A DNA stretch of 64,000 bases from a virus (taxonomy: Duplodnaviria; Heunggongvirae; Uroviricota; Caudoviricetes). Position numbers and translations under genes: made by a program. Below are positions 44,132 to 56,155 of this stretch, piece by piece; positions within the stretch are counted from its first letter, which is position 1; the number at the start of each line of letters is the position of its first letter. The stretch lies in the IMG/VR virus record IMGVR_UViG_2529292828_000009. One strand, given 5' to 3'. Under the pieces are notes generated by a model, which worked only from the letters and a program-made list of their open reading frames with translations, had not been told where the DNA came from and ran no database searches.

Positions 44132-44167
44132 ATGGTGCGAAGGTGCGAAGGTGCGAAGGCCGGACTC
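44132..44167 (-). repeat. Degenerate att-type direct repeat (tRNA 3'-end-like) with three tandem GGTGCGAA octamers
   Basis: TGGTGCGAAGGTGCGAAGGTGCGAAGGCCGGACTCG; last part matches the repeat at 55785..55808. Confidence 0.5.
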
Positions 44168-44519
44168 GCATATTCATTTAAATTGTTGTAAAAAATGGAT
44201 TTTATTAATAATTAATTCAATTATGCCCCCTTTTGTGCCCCCTCCATTCGCTGTTCACATTTTGATTTTTGTTGATTATTTATCCAAAAATTATCGAAGA
44301 AATAGTCAATCCAGTTAGGTTCCGTTAAACGGATCCAAACCGGGACTTGACTCAACAAAAAATACTTTTTTTTCGCAAAACCATGCACACTATTCACTCT
44401 GCAACTTTTAATTTATATATCAATTGGTTATGTATTAACAGTTAGGTGAAGAGTGAACTGCTATCTCTACATTCGTACGTTTCCAATAAGAAACCCGGCA
44501 TCAGCCGGGTTAGTTGTAA

Positions 44520-46844
44520 TTATTTGATTGTTAGCTCATCACACTTGGGAAGCCAGTCTGCATTACTTTCCTCTTTTAAAGTGAGGTTAGTCTGCATTCC
44601 CTGATTAGTTCGCCGCTTCTCATAATTTAGCCCGTATTCCTTCAGCATAACTGGTAGCCCTTTGCCAAACATTGTCAGGCTAAGGGTATTTTTAAAGCCA
44701 TTAGCCTCCATGTATACGAGATAGGCATGGTAAAGGTACGTACGTGGCTGGCGCGGGACAATATTGGCGTTCCCCATAAACATGCCGTTGGTGTCAGGTA
44801 ATGCCTCAAGGTAGCCACAAAAATCAAATGCTGGATCAGCATCACGCTTGATGGTGAGAGCCTCATCAGAATTCTGCTGCGACTGAAGCAATGTTCTGGC
44901 GCTCATCGGATCGCTGAAACGCTGCATGAGCTGACGAACAATCACAGCCAGTTCTCGTGCAATTTTATCTTTCAACTGCGGATCGCGTTCTTCCGGTGCT
45001 ATCTGCTCAGGAAAATGCAGAATAACTCTCCTGCGGGACACACCACCACTGCGATCAGTGAAGCGCATAGGATTATTATTTACGGCCAAGATAACCGCCG
45101 GAATATGTGTTGAATAAGCATTCTGATATTTGGGGTCCACAGATACTGCATCGCCACCAGTTATAGCCTTAAGCCCGGCGCCGTCGCCGCTCCACTTCTC
45201 CTGATCAGGCAGGCGAATAAGAGAAAAACCTATCAGAGCCGCACGTTCTCGCGGGGACTCCAGCGTTTCAATGGTCGCAGAGGTGGCGTTATCCTCTCCA
45301 GCAAGCATGGTCGCAATTTCAGCCAGAATACTTTTGCCACTTCCACCAGGGCCAGTCACTTCCAGAAAGAGCTGCCAGTCATAACGGTTCGCCAGCACCA
45401 TAAATAACGCTGCAAGAATAATGTCGCGTTTTGCTGGCTTGTGTCCGGCGGCCCGGTCCAACCAACGCCAGAATGCCGGGGCATGAGTTTCAAGCGTTTC
45501 CCCCTTTACCGGTGGCGTGAAATCGACTTCACACAGGGTACGCAGCCAGTTCTCTTTACAGTGCGGACTAAAAAGCCCTGTTCGCGTATCGAGAACGCCA
45601 TTACGAAAACCAATCAGATGACGTGACGGATTTTGCTGCTGCGGAACAATTAACTTTAATGTTTCCACCAGTGAGGCAATTTTTCCTGAGGAAAACGGTG
45701 CCCCGAGGCGCTGGAAAAGGGCTGCGACATCTCGGGCAAAATCTGACTGAGAAATAACTTTCCACGCTCCAGACTCGTAGCGGGATAAAAGCTGCCCGTT
45801 CGGATCAACCGCCAGTGCATCCCTGTAATGCTCCCGAACCCTCTGAGCTTTTTCGCTGACACTCATCGCTGTGAATTCTGCTTCACTCATTGTGTCGAAA
45901 GGACTGGCGTTATGTGGCTTCAAAGCCTCAAGAATTGCCTTCCGGGTGGATTCCTCTCCGTATTGGGTAAGCGCATCATTCCAGTCACCAAAAACCGGTG
46001 GCAGCACAATGTCACACTGACTCGCTTTTGCAGCAGTTTCAGCCCTGTTCTGGCCTGAACCATTCAGATCGCGGTCCGCTGCAATAATTAACTGATATCC
46101 AGGATACTTATTATGGGCAACGCTGCTCAGAGAAAGAAAGTTGACCGACGAAAATGCCACCATGACGGCTTCTCCTGTCAAATAATGAATGGTAAGCGCC
46201 GTGGCGTAACCTTCCGTAATCCAAATCCTTCTTACAGAACTCCCGCCCCCTTCTATCAGATGATAGGCCTCCTTAACCTGACCTCCTTTAAGAAAACACT
46301 TGCTACCATTGCTACTGATAAGCTGAATATTCACCAGCTCCCCGTCAGCGTTATAGAGTGGGACGATCAAATCACCGGGGCGGAACATCACACCACCGGC
46401 CTTATGAGCTGAAGTCAGCTCATGGCAAATATGCTCCGGGAAACCTTTATGTGTAAGATAAGTGTTTCCGGCAGATTCACGCGAGGCTTGCAGCAGTCGC
46501 GCGGCAAGTGCTGCCGCTGCATCTTTCCCGCTATCGGTATCGGCGGTTAACGTCCTGACCTCGGAATTAACTATAGACAGATCATGTGTCAGTCCATGTA
46601 TCCTGTCAGCTGCTTCACTGATATCCACATTCAGTGCCCTGGTGACAAGCGCTAAACCATCCCCGGCTCCGCACTGATTGCAGAACCATGTTCCGCGTCC
46701 TTCCTGATCGTCGAAGCGAAAACGATCTTTACCGCCACAGACCGGGCAAGGCTGATGGCGATTTTTCAATATATTCACGCCCAGCGCTGGCAGAATCTGA
46801 GCCCAGTGACCGCGGGCAGCCTTCACGGCCTGACTGACTTTCAT
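44520..46844 (-). CDS. P4 alpha-like primase-helicase (start at internal Met)
   Basis: Zinc-binding CPVCGGKD...CNQCG N-terminus, central primase region, C-terminal Walker A GPGGSGKS. Confidence 0.85.
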   Translation of the reverse strand: MKVSQAVKAARGHWAQILPALGVNILKNRHQPCPVCGGKDRFRFDDQEGRGTWFCNQCGAGDGLALVTRALNVDISEAADRIHGLTHDLSIVNSEVRTLTADTDSGKDAAAALAARLLQASRESAGNTYLTHKGFPEHICHELTSAHKAGGVMFRPGDLIVPLYNADGELVNIQLISSNGSKCFLKGGQVKEAYHLIEGGGSSVRRIWITEGYATALTIHYLTGEAVMVAFSSVNFLSLSSVAHNKYPGYQLIIAADRDLNGSGQNRAETAAKASQCDIVLPPVFGDWNDALTQYGEESTRKAILEALKPHNASPFDTMSEAEFTAMSVSEKAQRVREHYRDALAVDPNGQLLSRYESGAWKVISQSDFARDVAALFQRLGAPFSSGKIASLVETLKLIVPQQQNPSRHLIGFRNGVLDTRTGLFSPHCKENWLRTLCEVDFTPPVKGETLETHAPAFWRWLDRAAGHKPAKRDIILAALFMVLANRYDWQLFLEVTGPGGSGKSILAEIATMLAGEDNATSATIETLESPRERAALIGFSLIRLPDQEKWSGDGAGLKAITGGDAVSVDPKYQNAYSTHIPAVILAVNNNPMRFTDRSGGVSRRRVILHFPEQIAPEERDPQLKDKIARELAVIVRQLMQRFSDPMSARTLLQSQQNSDEALTIKRDADPAFDFCGYLEALPDTNGMFMGNANIVPRQPRTYLYHAYLVYMEANGFKNTLSLTMFGKGLPVMLKEYGLNYEKRRTNQGMQTNLTLKEESNADWLPKCDELTIK

Positions 46845-46867
46845 TCCTGACATGACGCAGTTCTCCC

Positions 46868-47191
46868 TCAGTGTAAAACCGGCTTTTTGATGTGACGGAC
46901 GCATAACTCATCCATTACGGCTATTCCGAGCTGGGAGAGTGCGGGACAGGACATTAGAGGGCCGTATTCCATCAGGTCTGAAAGCAGGGCGCAGGCGATT
47001 TCCATGCCTTTTGTTTGCCCGTGCTGTCGCAGATAAAATCCTTCAAGCTCACGGGCAATAGCGGTTTCAATTTCATCCAGAGTGAGCTGCAGATGGCGGT
47101 TTTGCTGATAGCAGGCACTCAACCAGGCGCAGGCTACCGCGCGGCGATACAACGCTACCCGAAGTGAAAGGGAAAGAGTGCGTGATTTCAT
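46868..47191 (-). CDS. Hypothetical protein of the P4-like left operon
   Basis: 107 aa ORF directly upstream of alpha. Confidence 0.4.
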
Positions 47192-47412
47192 TGCACCACC
47201 TCCATGTTCATGAGGTCATCCTGGCAACGCTGTACCACGCCATCAAGCTGCTCTGTCATCAGATAAATCAGGGAAACCAGTTGTTCACATTGAGCACTGG
47301 CAGGTTTTTCGTAGCAATCCTGAAGAACAGCCATTCCAGTGACAAACTCTCCCACGTTACGAAGATGCTTCAGGCGGAGAATATCGTCATAAGAGATTGC
47401 GGCGTGATTCAT
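47188..47412 (-). CDS. Hypothetical small protein (position equivalent to P4 epsilon; start at internal Met)
   Basis: ORF between immunity region and alpha operon. Confidence 0.35.
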
Positions 47413-47599
47413 TAGATCACCTCCCGGACAGGCAGGCGAGCAGCAAGACAAAGCACATACTCATGGACCAGTGAAAGACGTGCATGATGCTCATTGCTGG
47501 CGATGATACGCAGCATACTGATACGTGGTTTACGTTCTGCACGACGAACGGCGGCAAAAACAAATATAAATTGAGGATGTGACGGGGCGAGGATCGTAG

Positions 47600-47870
47600 C
47601 CATAAGGGCAACCTCCAATAAGTAGCGGTAAATGCCACCACCGGAGTTCCTACGCTCATGGGTGGTGACCCGAACGGGGGTAGGAATACCGGCCTTATTG
47701 GAAACCGGCCAGCCCGAAGGCTGCCCCGCCCGGACCACCATTATCTGAAAGGGGCTAAGGTATAAGCACCGCAGCCCGAAAAATGGGTGTGCCTGAGCAA
47801 CGACGTAAAAAAAGACGCACGGCGCGTCTGGTGTCGCCAATAAGTAACTCGGGTTCCTACGCCCGGCAGC
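47600..47870 (-). ncRNA. Candidate P4-type CI-like immunity RNA region
   Basis: Two direct copies of CCAATAAGTA...GGNGTTCCTACGC (~47615-47655, ~47837-47862) flank a complementary segment GGGGGTAGGAATACCGGCCTTATTGG (~47676-47702); hairpin + T-run on minus strand at ~47796-47828. Confidence 0.4.
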
Positions 47871-47956
47871 CGATTTTGCGGCAGCGGGAAAACTATACCT
47901 GGAAAAGATATCAGGACGCAAGCCAGAAAAAAGGAGATGAGACTGCAAAGCAAGTT

Positions 47957-48217
47957 TCACGCATGGCCTCCTTGCTCGCGGGCAGCAATTCGCGCCGCCA
48001 TCCATGCACTGACCTCCGACTGTACCCAGGCCACATTTTTTCCACCCAGGGATATCTGCTGCGGGAAGGCATCGCGGCTGATAAGGTCGTAGATGGTTGA
48101 ACGGGATAGCCCGCAAAGGTGCATCACTTCAGGTAATCGTATGAAGCGCTCCTGCTGAGCCGGAACCGGGAGCACCGGAGCAGCTGGTGCCGGGGTGGAA
48201 ACGGAAATACTATTCAT
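47957..48217 (-). CDS. AlpA-family transcriptional regulator
   Basis: 86 aa; [23 protein letters not shown] typical of AlpA. Confidence 0.8.
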
Positions 48218-48860
48218 CTGGCTACCTCTCTAATATGTTTACAACAGTCCGGGCAATTCCATGCGGATTCAGGTAGCTCCTTATTATGTTTATATAAGCG
48301 GCTCGCGCATGCTTTATTTATTTTGTGTGAAATGTTGATTTCTCAAAAAATAAAACAGCTAAAAACCGTATGAAACGAACAAAAACAAACAATTCCTTTA
48401 TGGAATATAATAAGGAGCATCAATAATAAAAAAGTCTATTACACTAGGCAGGATCACAGCTCAAATCTGAACCAGCCCATATCATTCAGGGCTTTACATC
48501 ATAAGCACTAAGACAACACCTGATTAATAAAAGAGCCAAAAACGGCCAAAAATAAACAGCTCACCATATGTATCAATAAATCCGATGATTAAAGAAATTA
48601 AATTACCATCTTACTTCCGCATGTATCCGAATGTGTTTAATGAACATCAGACAAATTCATTTTTATGAATATTTTCCTGAAATGCAACTGAGTGCAGGGA
48701 GGTTGAATGTTCAATTATTAAACAGATATAAGACATCTTTTATTCTTTACATAGAATATGTATTGAATACTGGTGAATATTGGTGAGGAGAAAAGATCCA
48801 GTAATAAACTGAAATAAATATCGCGACTTATATGAAAAAGAAATATATGTTTAATTTTAT

Positions 48861-48970
48861 CTCTGTGAACAGTCATGAACAGTAGATGATCACTTTAATT
48901 AAAACACTACACCACTTAACCACATGTATTTACTATATTTTTATTGAAGTGAACAGTAGTGAATAGTATG
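48861..48970. repeat. Cluster of GTGAACAG-like octamer repeats (candidate alpha-binding iterons)
   Basis: gtgaacag / atgaacag / gtgaacag / gtgaatag within ~110 bp of AT-rich intergenic DNA. Confidence 0.35.
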
Positions 48971-49122
48971 TATTAAAGGAAGCGTGTAGATCAGACATGA
49001 CACCTTTCTCTGGCTAGCCAGAACAAGGTCATTGTTCAGTCACTGACACAATCCTCCTCGGTAGTGCGCTTGTATGGACCCCGGCACAATTGACACAACA
49101 ACAAAACACTACCGGAGCAGCC

Positions 49123-49875
49123 ATGACAACTGTTAACCAGATCTCTGATGCAAACATTACCCCCACCCTCCCGCCGAAAATTCGCGAAGCGGTGGAAAAA
49201 GTTAAGGCAGCAAAAGCTGTCTGGCAGGAAGAACGGCGAAAACAAACCGAAGCTGCTGCAATGACTGAAACTATCCGTAAACGTCAGGAAGATACAAAAA
49301 CGGAGACGCAGGCGCTTAATGATGAATGGCGAAACCTGTTTCGTGAGAATCAGGGGAATATGACGCCACGAATGAAAAAACTGCGGGCAGAAATCGCCCT
49401 CGGACGCGAAACACTAGATGAGTTCGAAGATTTGCTGGCTGCTCAGGCTGCAGAAAATGAATTCCTGCCATGGAAAACTGCGGATGCTGCAAACCGCTAC
49501 ATCAGCGAACATAATCACCTGATTGAAACTCATGCAGTGTGGCTCTGGAATGAGTTTATGAAGGAACACGGCCAGAAACTTATTCAGATCCTTGGACTGC
49601 TGAAAATGACTCTGGGCCGAAGCGCATCTTCTGTTATCGGTGTAGTTCATACCGTAAACGACCCCGAAAGTGTGCTGAAGCAATTTATCAGCGAGCAACT
49701 CACCACTCCGGCACTGTTCTGTAACGTATCTTCAACGGATGATATTGCCCTGCCGGGGATCAGCATTTATGCGGACGATAAAGCCATACAGGATGCCAGA
49801 CAATCACCCAGCCCTGCAGCACGTTCCCGGATGCTTAAACAGCGTGACATGGCTAAAGGGGGCGAGAAGGAATGA
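49123..49875 (+). CDS. Sid-like capsid size-determination protein (putative)
   Basis: Coiled-coil-rich ORF directly upstream of psu; GGAG RBS before internal ATG. Confidence 0.5.
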   Translation: MTTVNQISDANITPTLPPKIREAVEKVKAAKAVWQEERRKQTEAAAMTETIRKRQEDTKTETQALNDEWRNLFRENQGNMTPRMKKLRAEIALGRETLDEFEDLLAAQAAENEFLPWKTADAANRYISEHNHLIETHAVWLWNEFMKEHGQKLIQILGLLKMTLGRSASSVIGVVHTVNDPESVLKQFISEQLTTPALFCNVSSTDDIALPGISIYADDKAIQDARQSPSPAARSRMLKQRDMAKGGEKE

Positions 49876-50426
49876 ATACCGGAACCATTACTCAGGAAGC
49901 TCTCAACGATTACCGCGCGGCAATAAAAAGCTGGCTGACACTACGTAATGTGCAAAGTACCAGCCAGCTTCGTCTGGCTGCTTTGCTGGATACTGAAGAA
50001 AAACCCGCAGCATATGCCAGCCAACTTGAGGATCTTCGTGAGCGTCTTGCACTCCTCGAATGGCAGATTAACTGTGCCGCCCGGGATGGTCTTTATGCTC
50101 ACCAGATTGTGCTGGAAAGCTGTGTTACAAGCGCAACTGAAAACTTCATGAGCGAGCATGGTGATGCACTCACTGACGCTCTGGCTCCTTTTCTTTGTGC
50201 ACCATACGGGCTTGAGGCGGCAATGAAAATATTACGAACCGCTGTAGCCCGACAAACGGAAGTCCGTACTCCGGTAATTTCAGCAGCATATAAGAGCATT
50301 ATCGACGAAACCGGATTAACGGTGGATGCATCAATGCGCGCTGATGCTTCAGCCAGTTTCACCCCGGCACAACATAAAGTTTTCCTGGCCCGCCTTAACC
50401 GACTTAATGAAAAAGGAGTGTGCTGA
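49872..50426 (+). CDS. psu: Polarity suppression protein Psu
   Basis: 184 aa; segments resemble P4 Psu as recalled (FTPAQ..., HGxAL..ALAP). Confidence 0.75.
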   Translation: MNTGTITQEALNDYRAAIKSWLTLRNVQSTSQLRLAALLDTEEKPAAYASQLEDLRERLALLEWQINCAARDGLYAHQIVLESCVTSATENFMSEHGDALTDALAPFLCAPYGLEAAMKILRTAVARQTEVRTPVISAAYKSIIDETGLTVDASMRADASASFTPAQHKVFLARLNRLNEKGVC

Positions 50427-50427
50427 T

Positions 50428-50700
50428 ATGGCCCTGAAGTGTCCTGAATGTGGCGCGGTCGCTCACGCCAGAACCAGCGCCTATGAAGCTCCGTCGGTTA
50501 AACGCTCATGGTATCAGTGCCAGAATCTGGAATGTTCCTGCACATTTACCGCACTGGAAAGCGTGGATACGATAATTATGAAGCCTCGGTGCAATGAACA
50601 GGAATCAGACAAAGCAAAAATACCGGAAAAACAACAGCAAACTCTCAATCGCTATGGCTCCGCGTCAAAGCTGTCAAACCGTCAGCAAATTCCTGTCTGA
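50428..50700 (+). CDS. Ogr/Delta-family zinc-finger late transcription activator
   Basis: CPECGAVAHARTS...YQCQNLECSCTF pattern as in P2 Ogr. Confidence 0.8.
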   Translation: MALKCPECGAVAHARTSAYEAPSVKRSWYQCQNLECSCTFTALESVDTIIMKPRCNEQESDKAKIPEKQQQTLNRYGSASKLSNRQQIPV

Positions 50701-50723
50701 TTAGCAAAATACGACCACGAAGT

Positions 50724-50747
50724 CCCGGTCCAGTACCGGGATTTTTT
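50724..50747 (+). terminator. Rho-independent terminator after delta
   Basis: CCCGGT-loop-ACCGGG hairpin followed by T-run. Confidence 0.5.
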
Positions 50748-50791
50748 ACGCCTTTTCCCTGGCTGGCCTGAGAGCGTATGAGTGCATATCT

Positions 50792-50830
50792 ATGGCGCAT
50801 GAAAACGCATGAGTCTCATGCGCCATTTTT
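50792..50830 (+). terminator. Second hairpin + T-run
   Basis: 11-bp stem ATGGCGCATGA/TCATGCGCCAT followed by TTTTT. Confidence 0.4.
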
Positions 50831-51306
50831 GACGCGAAAGCCCTTGTGTGGTGGCTTCTGAGACGATTTACGGGGTGCATGAAAACCAGTCTGTTAAGCG
50901 AAGCTGGCAGGCGGGCGGGGCTGCTCGCGCTAAGGGAGAAAATAGCAAACTCAGCCGCGCAGGCGGTGACAATGATTGACGAGATACTGGCTGGCAGTTG
51001 CTGAAATCTCCGCAATGATTCAAGAACTGCAGTGTATCGATGCAGCACACGTAAACTGAGCGGCGCTACGGGTAATATTTATAGATTTGTCATCCTTAGT
51101 GAGCATGGTTCTCACTCTTGTAACCTCTACCTGTACAAGATATCGTAAGACCTCAGATCAAACATGCACGTGTATTAAAGGTGGGCAAGCGTGGCGGGAA
51201 GATAATTGTGCGCACTGTAGTCAAAGATAGGGATTGTGATTACTTTTTCTTCCAGCCGTGGTGTAGTAAATTATTGGGAACAAACTCTTAATGACATCAA
51301 TGGATA

Positions 51307-52605
51307 ATGATTATGACTACAAATCCGGACGGATACATCTCATTTTTAAAACCCGGTAGTAACGACTGGAAAGCATTAGATAGTAAATCGTTTATTTATT
51401 GGCGAGACTACATAACGAATGAAAGTTTAGAAGAGTCAGGAGATTCTATTTCTCCAGCACAATCTCTTACTGATGGTGAAAAGAAGGAGTTGAAAGACAA
51501 TCAGGCATATATAAACGAACTATTACTAAAATCATTACAATTCCCAAATCTTGCATTCTTCGCTGGGAGTGGTACTTCGCTTGGGGACGTTGGAGGACCA
51601 AGCATGTGGGATCTCTGGAAGTGTGCAATGTGGAGTGAATCTTCTATAAACGAGGATGGTCAATTAAAACCTGATGCTCAAATTGTTTGTGATAAAGTAA
51701 AATATAAAGAGCGAGAGTATCCTAACATAGAACACTTTCTTTCTAATTGTGAAGCATATTTAGCATTTCATGATGATGAAGAAGTGTTGAATTTTTTAAA
51801 TAAAGTTAAAACAATTATTTTAGACAAATGTCGCTCATTTATTGATGATGGCAACTGTGATCTTTCAGCTTACATCAATTTATTACAAAAAATGGGGAGG
51901 AGGAGAGTCAGAGATCCTAGACTAAAAGTTTTCACAACTAACTATGATTTAGCCTTTGAAACAGCTGCTTCTGAATTAGGAATGATGGTAGTTGATGGTC
52001 TTTCATATACAGGAGTTCGCAGATTCGATGGTAAATATTTTAACTACGATGTTGTTAAAAGAGATGAAAACGAGCATGAGTTTGTAGAGGGCGTATTCCA
52101 GTTATTTAAACTCCACGGTTCTGTAAGTTGGATAAGAAAGGATGGGCAAATATATGAATCCAGCCAACCAACAGCAACAAACGCATGTCTAATATATCCA
52201 GCGAAAGGTAAATATCAGCAAGCCTTTATTCAACCTCACTTAGAATTACTTTCAAGATTGTTAGATTTCTTGAGAAAAAGAAATAACTGTTTAGTTATAT
52301 CTGGATTTGGTTTCAATGATGACCATCTTTCTGAACCAATTTACTCAGCAATAAAATCCAATCCAAGCATGAGGTTGATTATAGTAGATTTCAAATGTGC
52401 AACTCATATTCGGAATAAAGGGGGGGACGGTTCTAGTAAATATTGGGATTTACTAAAACAACTCTCACTATCAGGTTATGACATTCACTTCATAAATGCA
52501 TCTTTCAGTGATTTTGTTAAATTAGTTCCCAATCTTAAAGCATTAACCCCAGCAGAACAGTTGGCTAAGGTAATAAAACAAGTAGGAGTTAACAATCAAT
52601 TATGA
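51307..52605 (+). CDS. SIR2-like NADase domain protein (candidate anti-phage effector)
   Basis: Motifs FFAGSGTS...GPSMW, TTNYD and KLHGS resemble SIR2-family NAD-binding/catalytic motifs. Confidence 0.75.
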   Translation: MIMTTNPDGYISFLKPGSNDWKALDSKSFIYWRDYITNESLEESGDSISPAQSLTDGEKKELKDNQAYINELLLKSLQFPNLAFFAGSGTSLGDVGGPSMWDLWKCAMWSESSINEDGQLKPDAQIVCDKVKYKEREYPNIEHFLSNCEAYLAFHDDEEVLNFLNKVKTIILDKCRSFIDDGNCDLSAYINLLQKMGRRRVRDPRLKVFTTNYDLAFETAASELGMMVVDGLSYTGVRRFDGKYFNYDVVKRDENEHEFVEGVFQLFKLHGSVSWIRKDGQIYESSQPTATNACLIYPAKGKYQQAFIQPHLELLSRLLDFLRKRNNCLVISGFGFNDDHLSEPIYSAIKSNPSMRLIIVDFKCATHIRNKGGDGSSKYWDLLKQLSLSGYDIHFINASFSDFVKLVPNLKALTPAEQLAKVIKQVGVNNQL

Positions 52606-54323
52606 TTAATACAACACTACAGCTTGGTATTTTGAGGGGCGACCTTAAGGTTGGAGTAGTCTCATCAATTTTTGCTCAAACAGTTAGAGCAAATTTAATC
52701 TATGCAGGGGAACTCAGCGGAACATATATAGAAGGTTGTAGATATGGAAAAGGAGAAGTTGGTGAAATATTATTAATAGAAGGACAACAATCTATTGTTC
52801 TTGGCCGTTTAATAGAGGTTAAATTACCAGAGCGAGATAGAGGTGAAATATCTGTCGGGTCTCAAGGAAACTTCAAAGTTGATGCTATCGGCATTATACA
52901 ACTTCTTGGAACTATTGATCCTTCAAATTTTAGAATTGATTCAGGAATCAAATCATATCCTCGATTAGGAGATCGAGTTTATTCTGCTCCCTTAGATTTT
53001 ATTTCTTTAATACCAGAATTAATTAATAAAGGAATTAAAGATAACGAGGAAGAAAGAATAGGTATTGTATTAGGCATTATATCTGGAGGGGCAACAAGTA
53101 TAGTAACTGTTGAACCTGATAAACTCTTCGGTCGTCATTGTGCTATCTTAGGAGCTACAGGCGGTGGAAAAAGTTGGACAACTTCCAAGTTAATTGAAGA
53201 GTGTTCGAATTACGAAAACTCTAAAACTATAATAATTGATGCAACCAGTGAGTATAGATCGTTTAAATCTGATTATTGTTTACATTACCATTTAGGTGCC
53301 CCAATAAATAAAAACATAAATTCTTTAGAATTTAGAATTCCACCTACCGACTTTGTTGAGTCAGACTTTATTGCCATGTTCGATCCTTCTGGAAAAGTAC
53401 AGGGTCCTAAGCTAAAAGAAGCGATAAAAAGCCTTAGATTAGTAGCTTTAGAACCTAGAATAGCAACCGATGGTATTTTAAAAAAAATCAATCAACCTAA
53501 AACAGATTATCGACGCGCAATGAATACTGGAGACAACTCTAAACTTGTTGATAATCCATCACAACCATTTGATATAACAAAACTTATAAAACAGATTGTA
53601 CAAGAATGTTGTTACGATAATGGAGATAATACTTGGGGAAACGCTGCAACTCAAGACTTAAGCTATTGCTCATCTTTGTTAACCAGAATTCAAGCAGTAA
53701 CGTATGCCAACTCGTTAAGGTCTGTTTTTAATAGTAACGAGGATATATCCACACTAGGTGAAATATTAGAAACTTTTTTACAATCTGATAAACGAGTCCT
53801 AAGGTTATGCCTAAGTGATGTTAGCTATGAGTTTTATGCTAGAGAAATTTTAGCCAATGTAATCGGCAGAAAACTTTTAACTTTAGCTAGGCTTGAAAAA
53901 TTCAGAACAAGACCGCTGTTAGTTATTGTTGATGAAGCCCATAACTTCCTTGGCAAACGGGTTGGTTCTGAAGATCATGCAATTAAACTTGACGCTTTTG
54001 AGATGATTGCAAAAGAAGGCAGGAAATATGGCCTTAATATATGCTTAACAACTCAAAGACCCAGAGATATCACTGAAGGTGTGCTTAGTCAAATTGGAAC
54101 CTTATTGGTTCATCGCTTAACAAACGACCGAGATCGAGAAGTCGTTGAGCGTGCATGCGGTGAAATTGATAAATCTGCAGCATCTTTTCTACCAAGTCTC
54201 AAACAAGGTGAAGTTGCTCTTGTAGGGGTTGACTTCCCTATTCCTATGACCATCCAGATAGATAAGCCAATATATCCACCAGAATCTGATTCTCCAGGCT
54301 ATTGCAATATATGGAAAAAATAA
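52602..54323 (+). CDS. HerA/FtsK-like ATPase (partner of SIR2-like protein)
   Basis: Walker A GATGGGKS, Walker B LLVIVDEAHNF; start overlaps upstream stop (ATGA). Confidence 0.75.
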   Translation: MINTTLQLGILRGDLKVGVVSSIFAQTVRANLIYAGELSGTYIEGCRYGKGEVGEILLIEGQQSIVLGRLIEVKLPERDRGEISVGSQGNFKVDAIGIIQLLGTIDPSNFRIDSGIKSYPRLGDRVYSAPLDFISLIPELINKGIKDNEEERIGIVLGIISGGATSIVTVEPDKLFGRHCAILGATGGGKSWTTSKLIEECSNYENSKTIIIDATSEYRSFKSDYCLHYHLGAPINKNINSLEFRIPPTDFVESDFIAMFDPSGKVQGPKLKEAIKSLRLVALEPRIATDGILKKINQPKTDYRRAMNTGDNSKLVDNPSQPFDITKLIKQIVQECCYDNGDNTWGNAATQDLSYCSSLLTRIQAVTYANSLRSVFNSNEDISTLGEILETFLQSDKRVLRLCLSDVSYEFYAREILANVIGRKLLTLARLEKFRTRPLLVIVDEAHNFLGKRVGSEDHAIKLDAFEMIAKEGRKYGLNICLTTQRPRDITEGVLSQIGTLLVHRLTNDRDREVVERACGEIDKSAASFLPSLKQGEVALVGVDFPIPMTIQIDKPIYPPESDSPGYCNIWKK

Positions 54324-54326
54324 TTA

Positions 54327-54346
54327 GTAGGGTCTTTGACCCTACT
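54327..54346. terminator. Bidirectional hairpin terminator between convergent HerA-like gene and int
   Basis: GTAGGGTC-TTTG-GACCCTAC with T-rich flanks on both strands. Confidence 0.45.
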
Positions 54347-54361
54347 TTAAAATTTTTAAAG

Positions 54362-55633
54362 CTAGATAGTTTTTTTTGCAAAGTCGTAGGGGGTTATATA
54401 TTCCTGAGTGTTAGCATCAAGATAATCGGCCCACCACTGAACCATTAAACGACGCTCATCCAAATGCTCTGAAGTATGAATATAAGCAGCCCTAACGCTA
54501 TTACGCTCAGAGTGGCTTAGCTGACGTTCTATCGCGTCATCACTCCACAACCCTGATTCGCCCAAAGCACCGCGCGCCATAGTTCTGAATCCATGCCCGC
54601 AAACTTCGGTTTTTGTGTCATACCCCATTGTGCGCAAAGCACTGTTAACCGTGTTTTCACTCATAACTTTAGTTGCGTCATGATCTCCCGGAAACAGTAG
54701 CTCTTTATCACCACTAATCTGCTTAAGCTGCTCTAACAAAATCATCGCCTGCCGACTAAGCGGAACGATATGCTCCTCTTTCATCTTCATCCCACGGTAC
54801 GAGTAACGGACACCTTTAATTTCTTCTCGTTTTGCCGGTATACGCCAAAGAGATTTATCGAAGTCGAATTCATCCCAGCGAGCGAAACGCAACTCACTGG
54901 AACGCACAAAAGTTAGTAAGGAAAGCTCGACTGCAATCCGTGTCATTAAACGGCCACGATATGCAGCAAGACGTGCAAGAAACTCAGGGAAACGGTTAGA
55001 GGGTAAAGCTGGATAGTGTCGTGCTTTGGTTGTCGATAAAGCACCAGCCATATCACTGGCTGGGTTTGAGTCGATATAATCGTTCTGTACGGCATAACGC
55101 ATAATAGCTGTAACACGCTGCTGAAGACGCTGCGCGACGTCATGCTTACCACTGGCATCAACTTTTTTAATCGGGGCTAACAGGTGGCTTGTTTTAAGCT
55201 GGCGGATATCGGACGATCCGATATGAGGGAAGATATAAAGCTCAAGATAGCGAAGAACGCGCGCTCTATGGTCTTCACTCCAGCGCTTGTTACTGGCATG
55301 CCATTCACGAGCGATCGTTTCGAAAGTATATGCCCCCGATTTCTCGGCCTGAGCCGCTTTCTGCTCGGCTTTTGGATCAATACCCTGCACTAATAATCTT
55401 TTAGCTTCATCACGTTTTGCCCTTGCCTGGGCAAGTGTCACAGTAGGCCAAACGCCAAAAGCGAGGCGATCCTCTTTTTTGTCTGAAGGGCGTCTGTATT
55501 TCATACGCCAGTATTTAGATCCCTTGGCCGAAACCTCAAGATACAAACCGCCACCATCGGCCATTTTGTAGGTTTTGTCTTTTGGCTTTGCGGTCTCGAC
55601 CAGTCTGGCGTTGAGCTTCATTTGGGGGCACAT
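54362..55633 (-). CDS. P4-type tyrosine integrase
   Basis: 423 aa; C-terminal R...H..R...Y catalytic pattern; adjacent to att repeat. Confidence 0.9.
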   Translation of the reverse strand: MCPQMKLNARLVETAKPKDKTYKMADGGGLYLEVSAKGSKYWRMKYRRPSDKKEDRLAFGVWPTVTLAQARAKRDEAKRLLVQGIDPKAEQKAAQAEKSGAYTFETIAREWHASNKRWSEDHRARVLRYLELYIFPHIGSSDIRQLKTSHLLAPIKKVDASGKHDVAQRLQQRVTAIMRYAVQNDYIDSNPASDMAGALSTTKARHYPALPSNRFPEFLARLAAYRGRLMTRIAVELSLLTFVRSSELRFARWDEFDFDKSLWRIPAKREEIKGVRYSYRGMKMKEEHIVPLSRQAMILLEQLKQISGDKELLFPGDHDATKVMSENTVNSALRTMGYDTKTEVCGHGFRTMARGALGESGLWSDDAIERQLSHSERNSVRAAYIHTSEHLDERRLMVQWWADYLDANTQEYITPYDFAKKTI

Positions 55634-55784
55634 TTCTAATCGAAGTCAAGATGCCCCTAATTATGCCCCCAATGGCATCCGGATTTCAACGGACAATCTC
55701 GGACGACTCCGGACATAAGAATCACTGTACTCATTGAATTATAAGGAACAATTGGACTTTCTCGGATGATCTTGGAAGTGCTAA

Positions 55785-55808
55785 TGGTGCCGAAGGCCGG
55801 ACTCGAAC
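55785..55808 (-). repeat. att repeat: 24-nt copy of a tRNA 3' end (tRNA-Leu-like), not an intact tRNA
   Basis: TGGTGCCGAAGGCCGGACTCGAAC is the reverse complement of ...GTTCGAGTCCGGCCTTCGGCACCA; sequence beyond it does not continue as a tRNA. Confidence 0.7.
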
Positions 55809-56155
55809 ATCGCAACTATCCTTATGATCTTTAGTAATTAAAGCAATCTACATTGTCGATGATACCATCATTGATACCATCAGACCCGATTGATGATAAT
55901 CGAACAGTAATAAAATATGACTAAACAATTTATGCTTCAACATAAGATTGAATGCTTTGATCTACCATTTTAATGCAGTGGAAAAATTTTTAACACAATA
56001 CTTAAGAAAAATAATTTCATATAAAAACTACATTTCATTTCATATAGTTAACACACCAAAAACAACTGTATATAAACCCAGTAAAAAATGGTAGAATCAC
56101 TATTGTGTTCAATTGTTGAACATTTATAATACATTTGTCGGATAGGGGGGTGTTT

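Follow-up and report, generated by a model that had tools for sequence, protein, structure and literature searches.

A probable P4-type RNA immunity region in a satellite prophage of Escherichia coli: a C4-family antisense RNA between two complementary target sequences

Does the DNA between an alpA gene and the alpha replication operon of a prophage encode an RNA-based immunity system of the kind described in phage P4, or can its repeated and complementary segments be explained in another way? The question was raised by a sequence-only reading of the window (the whole stretch of DNA analysed, 64,000 nucleotides), in which a P4-type arrangement was proposed for this place. The placement is right: the locus is the leader of the alpha operon and lies downstream of a vis/alpA homologue, as in P4.

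The proposal started from two direct copies of an element of 25-40 nt. Both copies are present, but they do not form one continuous repeat; each consists of a pair of short boxes, with 21 nt between the boxes in the first copy and 6 nt in the second. The plus strand of the 64-kb window contains exactly two matches to the composite motif CCAATAAGTA-N(4-30)-GTTCCTACGC, at 47615-47655 and 47837-47862, and 100 dinucleotide-preserving shuffles gave 0. A repeat search recovered the same two blocks of 10 nt as exact repeats, with inverted partners around 47675-47692. The complementary segment postulated between them was also found, GGGGGTAGGAATACCGGCCTTATTGG at 47676-47701 of the plus strand, and it forms inverted repeats with both direct copies. 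Besides, the hairpin with a T-run announced for the minus strand consists of a stem at 47829..47813 followed by T7.

Taken on this sequence alone, the duplex energies of the complementary segment (seqB) with its two flanks stand out from shuffles to no more than a moderate degree (z = -4.0 and -2.9), and for this reason the weight of the argument is placed on covariance-model hits, homology with P4 and covariation rather than on energy. The G+C-rich seqB probe reaches comparably low duplex energies at other places in the window; single-sequence duplex energy was consequently dropped as a sufficient test and covariation was used instead.

A covariance-model search, the check that had been suggested for the proposal, gave a clear result. 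The Rfam scan of the whole window at the gathering threshold yielded exactly two matches, C4 (RF01695) and isrK (RF01394), which are adjacent and both on the minus strand. The C4 match runs from 47745 to 47658 and scores 83.4 bits against a gathering threshold of 45; the cI locus of phage P4 scores 74.9 bits with the same model. Phage P4 has the same C4 and isrK pair at the equivalent place and in the same order, and the two models have been equated with known parts of that phage, isrK with the seqA-containing leader and C4 with the CI RNA (PMC3632133, PMC4825925). The parts of the locus, from upstream to downstream, are the following:

47957..48217, minus strand: vis/alpA homologue of 86 aa (Pfam Phage_AlpA, E 4.2e-20; PHROG "excisionase and transcriptional regulator"; same position as P4 ORF88).
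47412..47960, minus strand: eta homologue of 182 aa, nested with kil, GTG start (RefSeq CDS; homology to the P4 ORF; Pfam Phage_ASH).
47916..47921, minus strand: -35 hexamer TTGCGT of a putative PLE-like constitutive promoter, assigned by homology and aligned with TTGCCT of P4.
47892..47897, minus strand: -10 hexamer TATAGT of the same putative promoter, in exact alignment with the annotated -10 of P4.
47808..47885, minus strand: 5' part of the leader RNA, IsrK-like (Rfam isrK RF01394, 72.1 bits against a gathering threshold of 50).
47837..47864, minus strand: seqA, the upstream target of the CI RNA, GGGCGTAGGAACCCGAGTTACTTATTGG, complementary to seqB.
47806..47829, minus strand: t1-like intrinsic terminator, AGACGCGCCGTGCGTCT plus T7 (terminator scan; 3' hairpin of the isrK model).
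47658..47745, minus strand: CI RNA gene, C4 antisense RNA family (Rfam RF01695, 83.4 bits, E 6.7e-15, full model).
47676..47701, minus strand: seqB, the recognition sequence within the CI RNA (inverted repeats, model structure, fold and allele comparison).
47615..47657, minus strand: seqC, the downstream target of the CI RNA, GAGCGTAGGAAC ... CTACTTATTGG, complementary to seqB.
47612..47616, minus strand: Shine-Dalgarno sequence GGAGG of kil, overlapping box 1 of seqC (read directly; kept across loci).
47412..47603, minus strand: kil homologue of 63 aa, Icd-like, ATG at 47603 (NCBIfam phage_ICD_like, E 9.2e-20).
47188..47415, minus strand: ORF of 75 aa in the left operon (PHROG 10110, function unknown).
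46868..47191, minus strand: DUF5375 ORF in the left operon (Pfam, PHROGs).
44520..46904, minus strand: alpha primase-helicase in the left operon (Pfam, PHROGs).

On the minus strand, to which all of these parts belong, the order is alpA - leader - kil - ORFs - alpha. The range of the initial proposal, 47600-47870, stops short of the leader's 5' end and of the promoter, which reaches to about 47921, and it does not take in the kil start codon region.

The -35 hexamer sits 18 nt upstream of the -10, and the latter aligns with the "consensus -10 sequence" annotated in the P4 record X02534 (L002 859-864, equivalent to 2921-2926 of the P4 sequence L001). TATAGT is nearly invariant among the 106 loci compared below. 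A generic sigma-70 promoter scan gave no promoter at all in 47300-48500; this one was passed over because the -35 hexamer matches the consensus at only 3 of its 6 bases. The 5' part of the leader RNA comprises hairpin 1, hairpin 2, which carries box 2 of seqA in its loop, a single-stranded box 1 of seqA and the terminator t1. As in P4, an intrinsic terminator lies between seqA and cI, with a G+C-rich stem of 7 bp followed by T7, and it closes the RNA of IsrK fold.

The CI RNA has the long closing stem and the two internal hairpins expected of the C4/CI fold. The 88-nt C4 segment has a minimum free energy of -47.2 kcal/mol (z = -3.25), and its minimum free energy structure is the structure of the model. 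Within it, box 1 of seqB (CCAATAAG) lies in the loop of CI hairpin 2 and box 2 (ATTCCTACCC) in a single-stranded joint. The outermost G-C pairs of the seqA-seqB and seqC-seqB duplexes use a run of C at the 3' edge of box 2, which also closes the long stem of CI. These outer pairs and the long stem cannot form together, so that the effective duplex is shorter than drawn. The ends of the mature CI RNA are predicted from those of P4, at about 47740..47660. Downstream, the terminator scan located a hairpin inside seqC at 47643..47626, which is a candidate counterpart of P4 t4.

Comparison with P4 supports the same assignment over the whole locus. The best blastn match of the region 47400-48260 in the phage collection is P4 itself (72.3% identity over 79% of the region), and in the pairwise alignment the -10 hexamer, the leader hairpins, seqA, the terminator with its T-run, the CI RNA, seqC and the GGAGG with the ATG that follows it are all matched. 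Pairing of a small RNA with both sites that flank it is the defining property of P4 immunity, and covariation among related loci bears directly on this property.

Loci were collected by an exact-match scan of IMG/VR for the invariant CI hairpin, which gave 120 loci, and pairs were counted on an alignment of 106 unique loci, the window and P4 included. The secondary structures themselves are well kept: the leader hairpins, t1 and the long stem of CI are paired in 95.3% of cases, against 26-44% when the alignment is slid, the CI long stem alone reaches 99.2% across the 106 loci, and in 30 loci a G-C pair of the t1 stem is swapped to C-G. The two interactions between RNA and targets gave the following values:

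seqA-seqB: 18 pairs; 96.3% of cells paired (39-52% after sliding by 1-3 columns); 15 pairs changed on both sides; 400 double-change cells; covariation score 0.587, best slid score 0.117.
seqC-seqB: 17 pairs; 94.2% of cells paired (36-43% after sliding by 1-3 columns); 14 pairs changed on both sides; 395 double-change cells; covariation score 0.603, best slid score 0.141.

Five measures were compared with 500 shuffles; 0 of 500 attained the observed value for three of them with seqA-seqB and for two with seqC-seqB, and the number of further pair types did not rise above the shuffles (393 of 500 and 218 of 500, respectively). The mean duplex of a cognate seqB with the leader has an energy of -39.0 kcal/mol on the seqA side and -36.6 on the seqC side, whereas a foreign seqB reaches -28.7 and -29.3 kcal/mol, respectively. 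In almost every locus both targets match the resident CI. These comparisons show that base pairing of the small RNA with both flanking sites is kept by selection. The P4-type reading proposed at the start is therefore upheld on three grounds: the RF01695 hit, the alignment with P4 from PLE through kil and the covariation of three elements in 106 loci.

The isrK match invites a different view of the main product. With 72.1 bits and a strong intrinsic terminator, an RNA of about 78 nt is expected, and this RNA carries seqA, complementary to CI. It could act in trans as an activator, or as a decoy that titrates CI, in which case the locus would be an anti-immunity or activator switch whose principal transcript ends at t1. 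Related to this, the Gifsy-1 sRNA IsrK activates translation of a downstream ORF (PMC4825925) and IsrK-like elements of P4-like prophages of S. Typhi were required in TraDIS (PMC3632133). However, the target module orf45-anrP was not found downstream of the leader, which is followed directly by the CI RNA and kil/eta, as in P4, with no ORFs between. Moreover, seqC, which overlaps the Shine-Dalgarno sequence of kil, co-varies with seqB as tightly as seqA does, and this fits repression by CI. An IsrK-like RNA as the main product is considered improbable, and this reading complements the P4 model rather than excluding it.

The P4-type reading has also to account for the protein-coding frame that runs through the locus. 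An ORF of 234 aa (47412..48116, with a TTG start at 48116) overlaps the RNA elements and had been dismissed as spurious. It is in the same frame as the first gene after seqC. The dismissal holds for the TTG start, which is probably wrong, and for the first 52 codons, which overlap alpA; it does not hold for the frame. In identical genomes the RefSeq CDS has 182 aa and a GTG start at 47960 that overlaps the stop codon of alpA as GTGA, and the overlapping ORF is the eta/kil homologue, most likely 47960..47412. The long P4 frame (L001 2813-3457) shares 53% amino acid identity with the window ORF over its full length, and it is to the C-terminal third of this P4 frame that the kil homologue aligns. 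The eta homologue spans PLE, seqA, t1, CI and seqC. Its frame starts upstream of PLE, kil is nested in it, and the GGAGG of kil (47616..47612) lies inside seqC.

The frame is conserved across loci. In 92 of the 99 unique loci (93%) it runs uninterrupted upstream from the kil ATG over 300 nt or more; the corresponding figures for the two other frames are 4% and 1%. Measured from an anchor in the leader, the kil ATG lies at one of at least seven main distances (272, 275, 278, 281, 299, 311 and 320), which are equal modulo 3, and this distance is constant modulo 3 in 91 of 96 loci; kil itself has 63-65 aa in 95 of 99 loci. Since the frame is open and insertions and deletions preserve it, it is under selection, and the word "spurious" does not apply to it. 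On the other hand, the residues encoded by the boxes vary freely among loci, from which we infer that the open frame, and not a particular peptide, is what is selected. In P4, eta is described as spanning PLE and cI, as translationally coupled to the alpA homologue and as translated only from the upstream late promoter, its translation preventing termination (Forti et al. 1999, as reported in PMC10111431).

Such a frame could by itself be taken as the cause of the whole pattern. In that case the repeats and their complement would reflect the protein-coding constraint of an Ash/eta ORF encoding a "transcriptional repressor" protein, with no RNA mechanism. The conserved open frame is real, the eta homologue has a Pfam Phage_ASH match (E 4.7e-33), the ORF matches PHROG 6928 "transcriptional repressor", and RefSeq annotates only a CDS. 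Nevertheless, both protein families are for the most part translations of the RNA region, and the "repressor" label goes back to the annotation of a "cI gene product" CDS in the P4 record, although the immunity factor of P4 is an RNA according to the P4 literature as reviewed in PMC4825925. Antiparallel Watson-Crick covariation of three separate segments, with about 400 double changes per interaction, cannot arise from a constraint on a protein; the covariance models score 83 and 72 bits; and the boxes vary together with the residues that they encode. A purely protein-coding origin is thus very improbable.

The element that carries the locus is a P4-like satellite prophage of about 11.66 kb, at 44154..55810 (no strand assigned); copies of a direct repeat, CGAAGGCCGGACTCG, mark its two ends (44154 and 55791). 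The att repeat is the 3' end of a tRNA-Leu; a tRNA search of the window found no intact tRNA, only these 24 nt of the tRNA-Leu 3' end. According to Pfam matches and RefSeq names, the prophage contains the genes from alpha through alpA, sid (sid-like), psu, delta, a SIR2 and ATPase cargo and int, so that the core set of P4-like satellites (int, alpA/vis, alpha, sid, psu and delta) is found within about 11 kb between the att repeats. At the position of epsilon there is the 75-aa ORF, for which BLASTP gave no alignment to P4 epsilon, the Ash antirepressor; as this gene is not homologous to epsilon, the downstream functions under the control of the operon may differ. The region 47400-48260 has relatives in 1181 of 5426 E. 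coli genomes; many complete genomes of this species carry it at 100% identity, and 158 records show at least 99% identity.

It could be thought that the prophage is defective and that its immunity RNA is an inactive relic no longer in use. Degraded P4-like islands are numerous in E. coli, no epsilon homologue is present here, and the element lies in a tandem array of islands with no intact tRNA adjoining it. The state of the element argues otherwise: all the immunity parts are intact, the three pairing elements match each other, both att repeats are present together with int, alpha, sid, psu, delta and alpA, the size is that of P4 (11.66 kb), and identical copies of the region occur in many genomes, which come from different hosts. 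A relic is therefore extremely improbable. As far as sequence can tell, the locus has every feature by which a P4 immunity system is recognised, and we conclude with high confidence that it is the immunity region of an intact E. coli P4-like satellite prophage, working most likely as in P4.

The mechanism that would follow is that of P4, as outlined in PMC4825925, PMC3632133 and PMC10111431. A constitutive PLE-like promoter would transcribe the minus strand from about 47885, giving a leader with the order seqA, t1, a CI RNA of about 80 nt whose long stem resembles a tRNA acceptor, seqC and kil, which would be the first gene translated. The CI RNA would be cut from the leader transcript and accumulate in the lysogen. 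In P4 the CI RNA is excised by RNase P with trimming of the 3' end. Processing by RNase P is known for the C4-type RNAs of P4 and P1 (PMC5499578).

The recognition sequence would consist of two boxes exposed on CI, box 1 in the loop (CCAAUAAG) and box 2 in the joint (AUUCCUACCC), able to base-pair with the seqA and seqC of newly made leader transcripts, either from the resident prophage or from a superinfecting element of like specificity. Pairing with seqA would favour termination at t1, which might give autoregulation of CI, and pairing with seqC would hide the ribosome-binding site of kil. The untranslated RNA would then end before the replication genes, through the t4-like site formed by the hairpin in seqC and through a Rho-dependent site further on, so that termination at counterparts of t1, t4 and timm may produce the immunity phenotype. 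The details of t1, t4 and timm are said to be given by Briani et al. 2000 and Forti et al. 1999. A bypass is also conceivable: transcripts from an upstream late promoter, running through alpA/vis, would allow translation of eta across the region, which would keep Rho off and let the replication genes escape immunity.

The collected loci also give a view of how specificity is built. The sequence after the invariant CI hairpin, seqB, occurs in 57 versions, which combine a variable box in the loop of hairpin 2 with another in the single-stranded joint. Among the 106 unique loci, box 1 has 23 alleles and box 2 has 12, in 46 combinations; for the common alleles, 29 of the 50 possible combinations are filled. 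The combination of the window, CCAATAAG plus TTCCTACCC, is the commonest allele among the sampled loci. The invariant CI hairpin is distributed in Enterobacterales, some Betaproteobacteria and other Gammaproteobacteria. It has been tentatively considered that the specificity of P4-type RNA immunity is a two-box combinatorial code reshuffled by recombination, which would be new if not described before; we regard this as possible, though somewhat doubtful. The large surveys of P4-like elements that were consulted (PMC8628076) do not treat the RNA immunity region. Co-resident satellite copies differ in seqB in 8 of 8 genomes, a comparison with no statistical power, since chance would give only about 0.3 identical pairs. 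If the code were true it might explain the coexistence of several satellites in one genome, and if it were also undescribed it would offer dozens of orthogonal natural pairs of RNA repressor and target.

For the biology of the window the result matters little, since the locus is a textbook P4-type one in a common E. coli satellite prophage. Its value lies rather in annotation, as the identical RefSeq records carry no ncRNA feature and only a CDS named "Icd-like". Besides, the comparative data, with their clean three-way covariation and modular boxes, could supply orthogonal pairs of antisense RNA and target, and also a marker with which P4-like satellites are typed into immunity groups. What may be new is limited to how broad and modular the specificity boxes are and to the use of one stretch of DNA both as RNA gene and as open frame.

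Several known systems are close to this locus, among them the CB RNA of N15 and phiKO2 and the C4-like modules of Stx and Klebsiella phages. Blastn gives 69-80% identity over the CI-seqC-icd part with phiKO2, Klebsiella phages and many Stx-converting phages. However, only the segment from CI to icd is common to them, and these are complete phages with other operons downstream.

The C4 antisense RNA of P1 and P7 belongs to the same Rfam family (RF01695), blocks translation of an Icd-type first gene, which leads to termination upstream of the effector genes, and is processed, by RNase P (PMC5499578), out of the same transcript that it represses. In contrast to the satellite described here, its host is a prophage of the P1 plasmid type and it controls the antirepressor ant instead of a primase-helicase operon. 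The c4-icd-ant module of P1/P7 is not present at this locus: the Icd-like gene is followed by the 75-aa ORF, the DUF5375 ORF and alpha, and there is no ant. In P1 both target sites of C4 are on one side of the RNA, whereas here the sites flank the CI RNA.

With respect to IsrK (STnc1160) of Salmonella Gifsy-1, the likeness lies in the leader, which the IsrK model matches with 72 bits. The authors of the Gifsy-1 work consider IsrK a structural homologue of the P4 seqA RNA and report a processed RNA downstream of it that may act like CI (PMC4825925). The Gifsy-1 module differs in preceding orf45-anrP, neither gene of which is found here, and in that its short RNA activates translation in trans.

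Phage P4 remains the closest relative. The elements have the same order and strand in both, PLE - seqA - t1 - cI - seqC - kil/eta; the -10 hexamer, the t1 hairpin and the CI fold are the same; the Shine-Dalgarno sequence of kil is inside seqC, and the eta frame is coupled to the stop of vis/alpA, in both. The differences are that the stretch between t1 and cI is longer by 45 nt (15 codons) in P4, that the gene following kil here bears no relation to P4 epsilon and that orf151 is absent here. The boxes have also changed, coordinately in each case: GTAGGAA/TTCCTAC here stands against GTGAGAA/TTCTCAC in P4, and CTTATTGG/CCAATAAG here stands against TTCACAGG/CCTGTGAA in P4. In total, 8 paired positions differ from P4 and are compensated in seqA, seqB and seqC. 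Because the boxes differ in this compensated way, the element of the window is predicted to be heteroimmune to P4. A precedent is the retronphage phiR73, reportedly a heteroimmune relative of P4 whose CI, seqA and seqC differ from those of P4 (work attributed to Sabbattini et al. 1996, Virology), and the same work is said to have established that the CI, seqA and seqC sequences set the specificity of immunity. The locus is, in its kind, already known: an ordinary member of a well-studied system and a common instance of it.

In the RefSeq genomes identical to the region of the CI RNA, which is the predicted immunity RNA, the sole feature at window 47412-47960 (minus strand; positions 9301-9849 of locus L003) is a 182-aa 'Icd-like' coding sequence, and no ncRNA is annotated there. 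The Pfam family Phage_ASH and PHROG 6928 ('transcriptional repressor') are mostly models of the translated seqA-CI-seqC RNA region, that is, of the RNA together with its two leader targets. The 'repressor' label of PHROG 6928 traces to the old P4 coding sequence 'cI gene product'.

The invariant 23-nt CI hairpin is also present well beyond Enterobacterales, on contigs from Ralstonia, Cupriavidus, Aquitalea, Thiothrix and Competibacteraceae (loci noted outside Enterobacterales: L127, L141, L156, L189, L186, L143 and L148). A few further matches come from assemblies that carry the label Vagococcus, Clostridiales or Actinomycetes; contamination or wrong bin labels seem to be behind them.

Eight genomes each harbour two or three copies of CI, in the following sets of loci:
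L134, L152 and L188
L158 and L180
L140 and L195
L151 and L193
L173 and L175
L154 and L192
L159 and L184
L170 and L177
All co-resident pairs differ in the allele of seqB, the recognition part of the RNA. This is consistent with heteroimmunity, yet it does not constitute evidence for it, because about 0.3 identical pairs are expected by chance. In one locus, on the IMG/VR contig L091 (positions 1608-1957), CI box 1 (CCAATAAG) is at odds with its own targets: box 1 of both seqA and seqC reads CTTCAAGG, which fits the CCTTGAAG allele of the near-identical loci L081 and L110. Recombination, escape from immunity or a chimeric assembly could each account for this locus.

The integrase is adjoined by just the final 24 nt of a tRNA-Leu gene (reverse complement GTTCGAGTCCGGCCTTCGGCACCA, window 55786-55810), and ARAGORN found no tRNA anywhere in the 64-kb window. 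The match to other E. coli genomes ends at 55808 and AT-rich DNA lies beyond it (considered to about 56160), which suggests a second island inserted in tandem and sharing this att site.

Between delta and int, the variable hotspot (window 51307-54323) holds two overlapping genes, named after identical RefSeq genomes, which are probably anti-phage defence cargo of the satellite:
51307-52605, SIR2-family gene
52602-54323, ATP-binding protein gene

Where P4 has epsilon, the antirepressor of the helper, this element has a 75-aa ORF (47188-47415, minus strand) that shows no detectable similarity to epsilon and is assigned to PHROG 10110, a family of unknown function; orf151 of P4 is absent. Helper derepression may be different here from that of P4, or sited elsewhere. 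The late genes (49090-50700) run sid-like, psu, delta instead of sid, delta, psu, and the sid-like protein has a weak Psu-family Pfam match. In the 870-nt intergenic region between alpA and sid, four TGT-N12-ACA dyads (window 48864-49088) occur against a chance expectation of about 0.2 and are candidates for late promoters dependent on delta/Ogr:
48864, dyad
48985, dyad
49033, dyad
49071, dyad
Such dyads are also present in P4, upstream of vis and of sid. The one closest to alpA lies about 650 nt from the alpA ATG in the window, a distance that is far shorter in P4.
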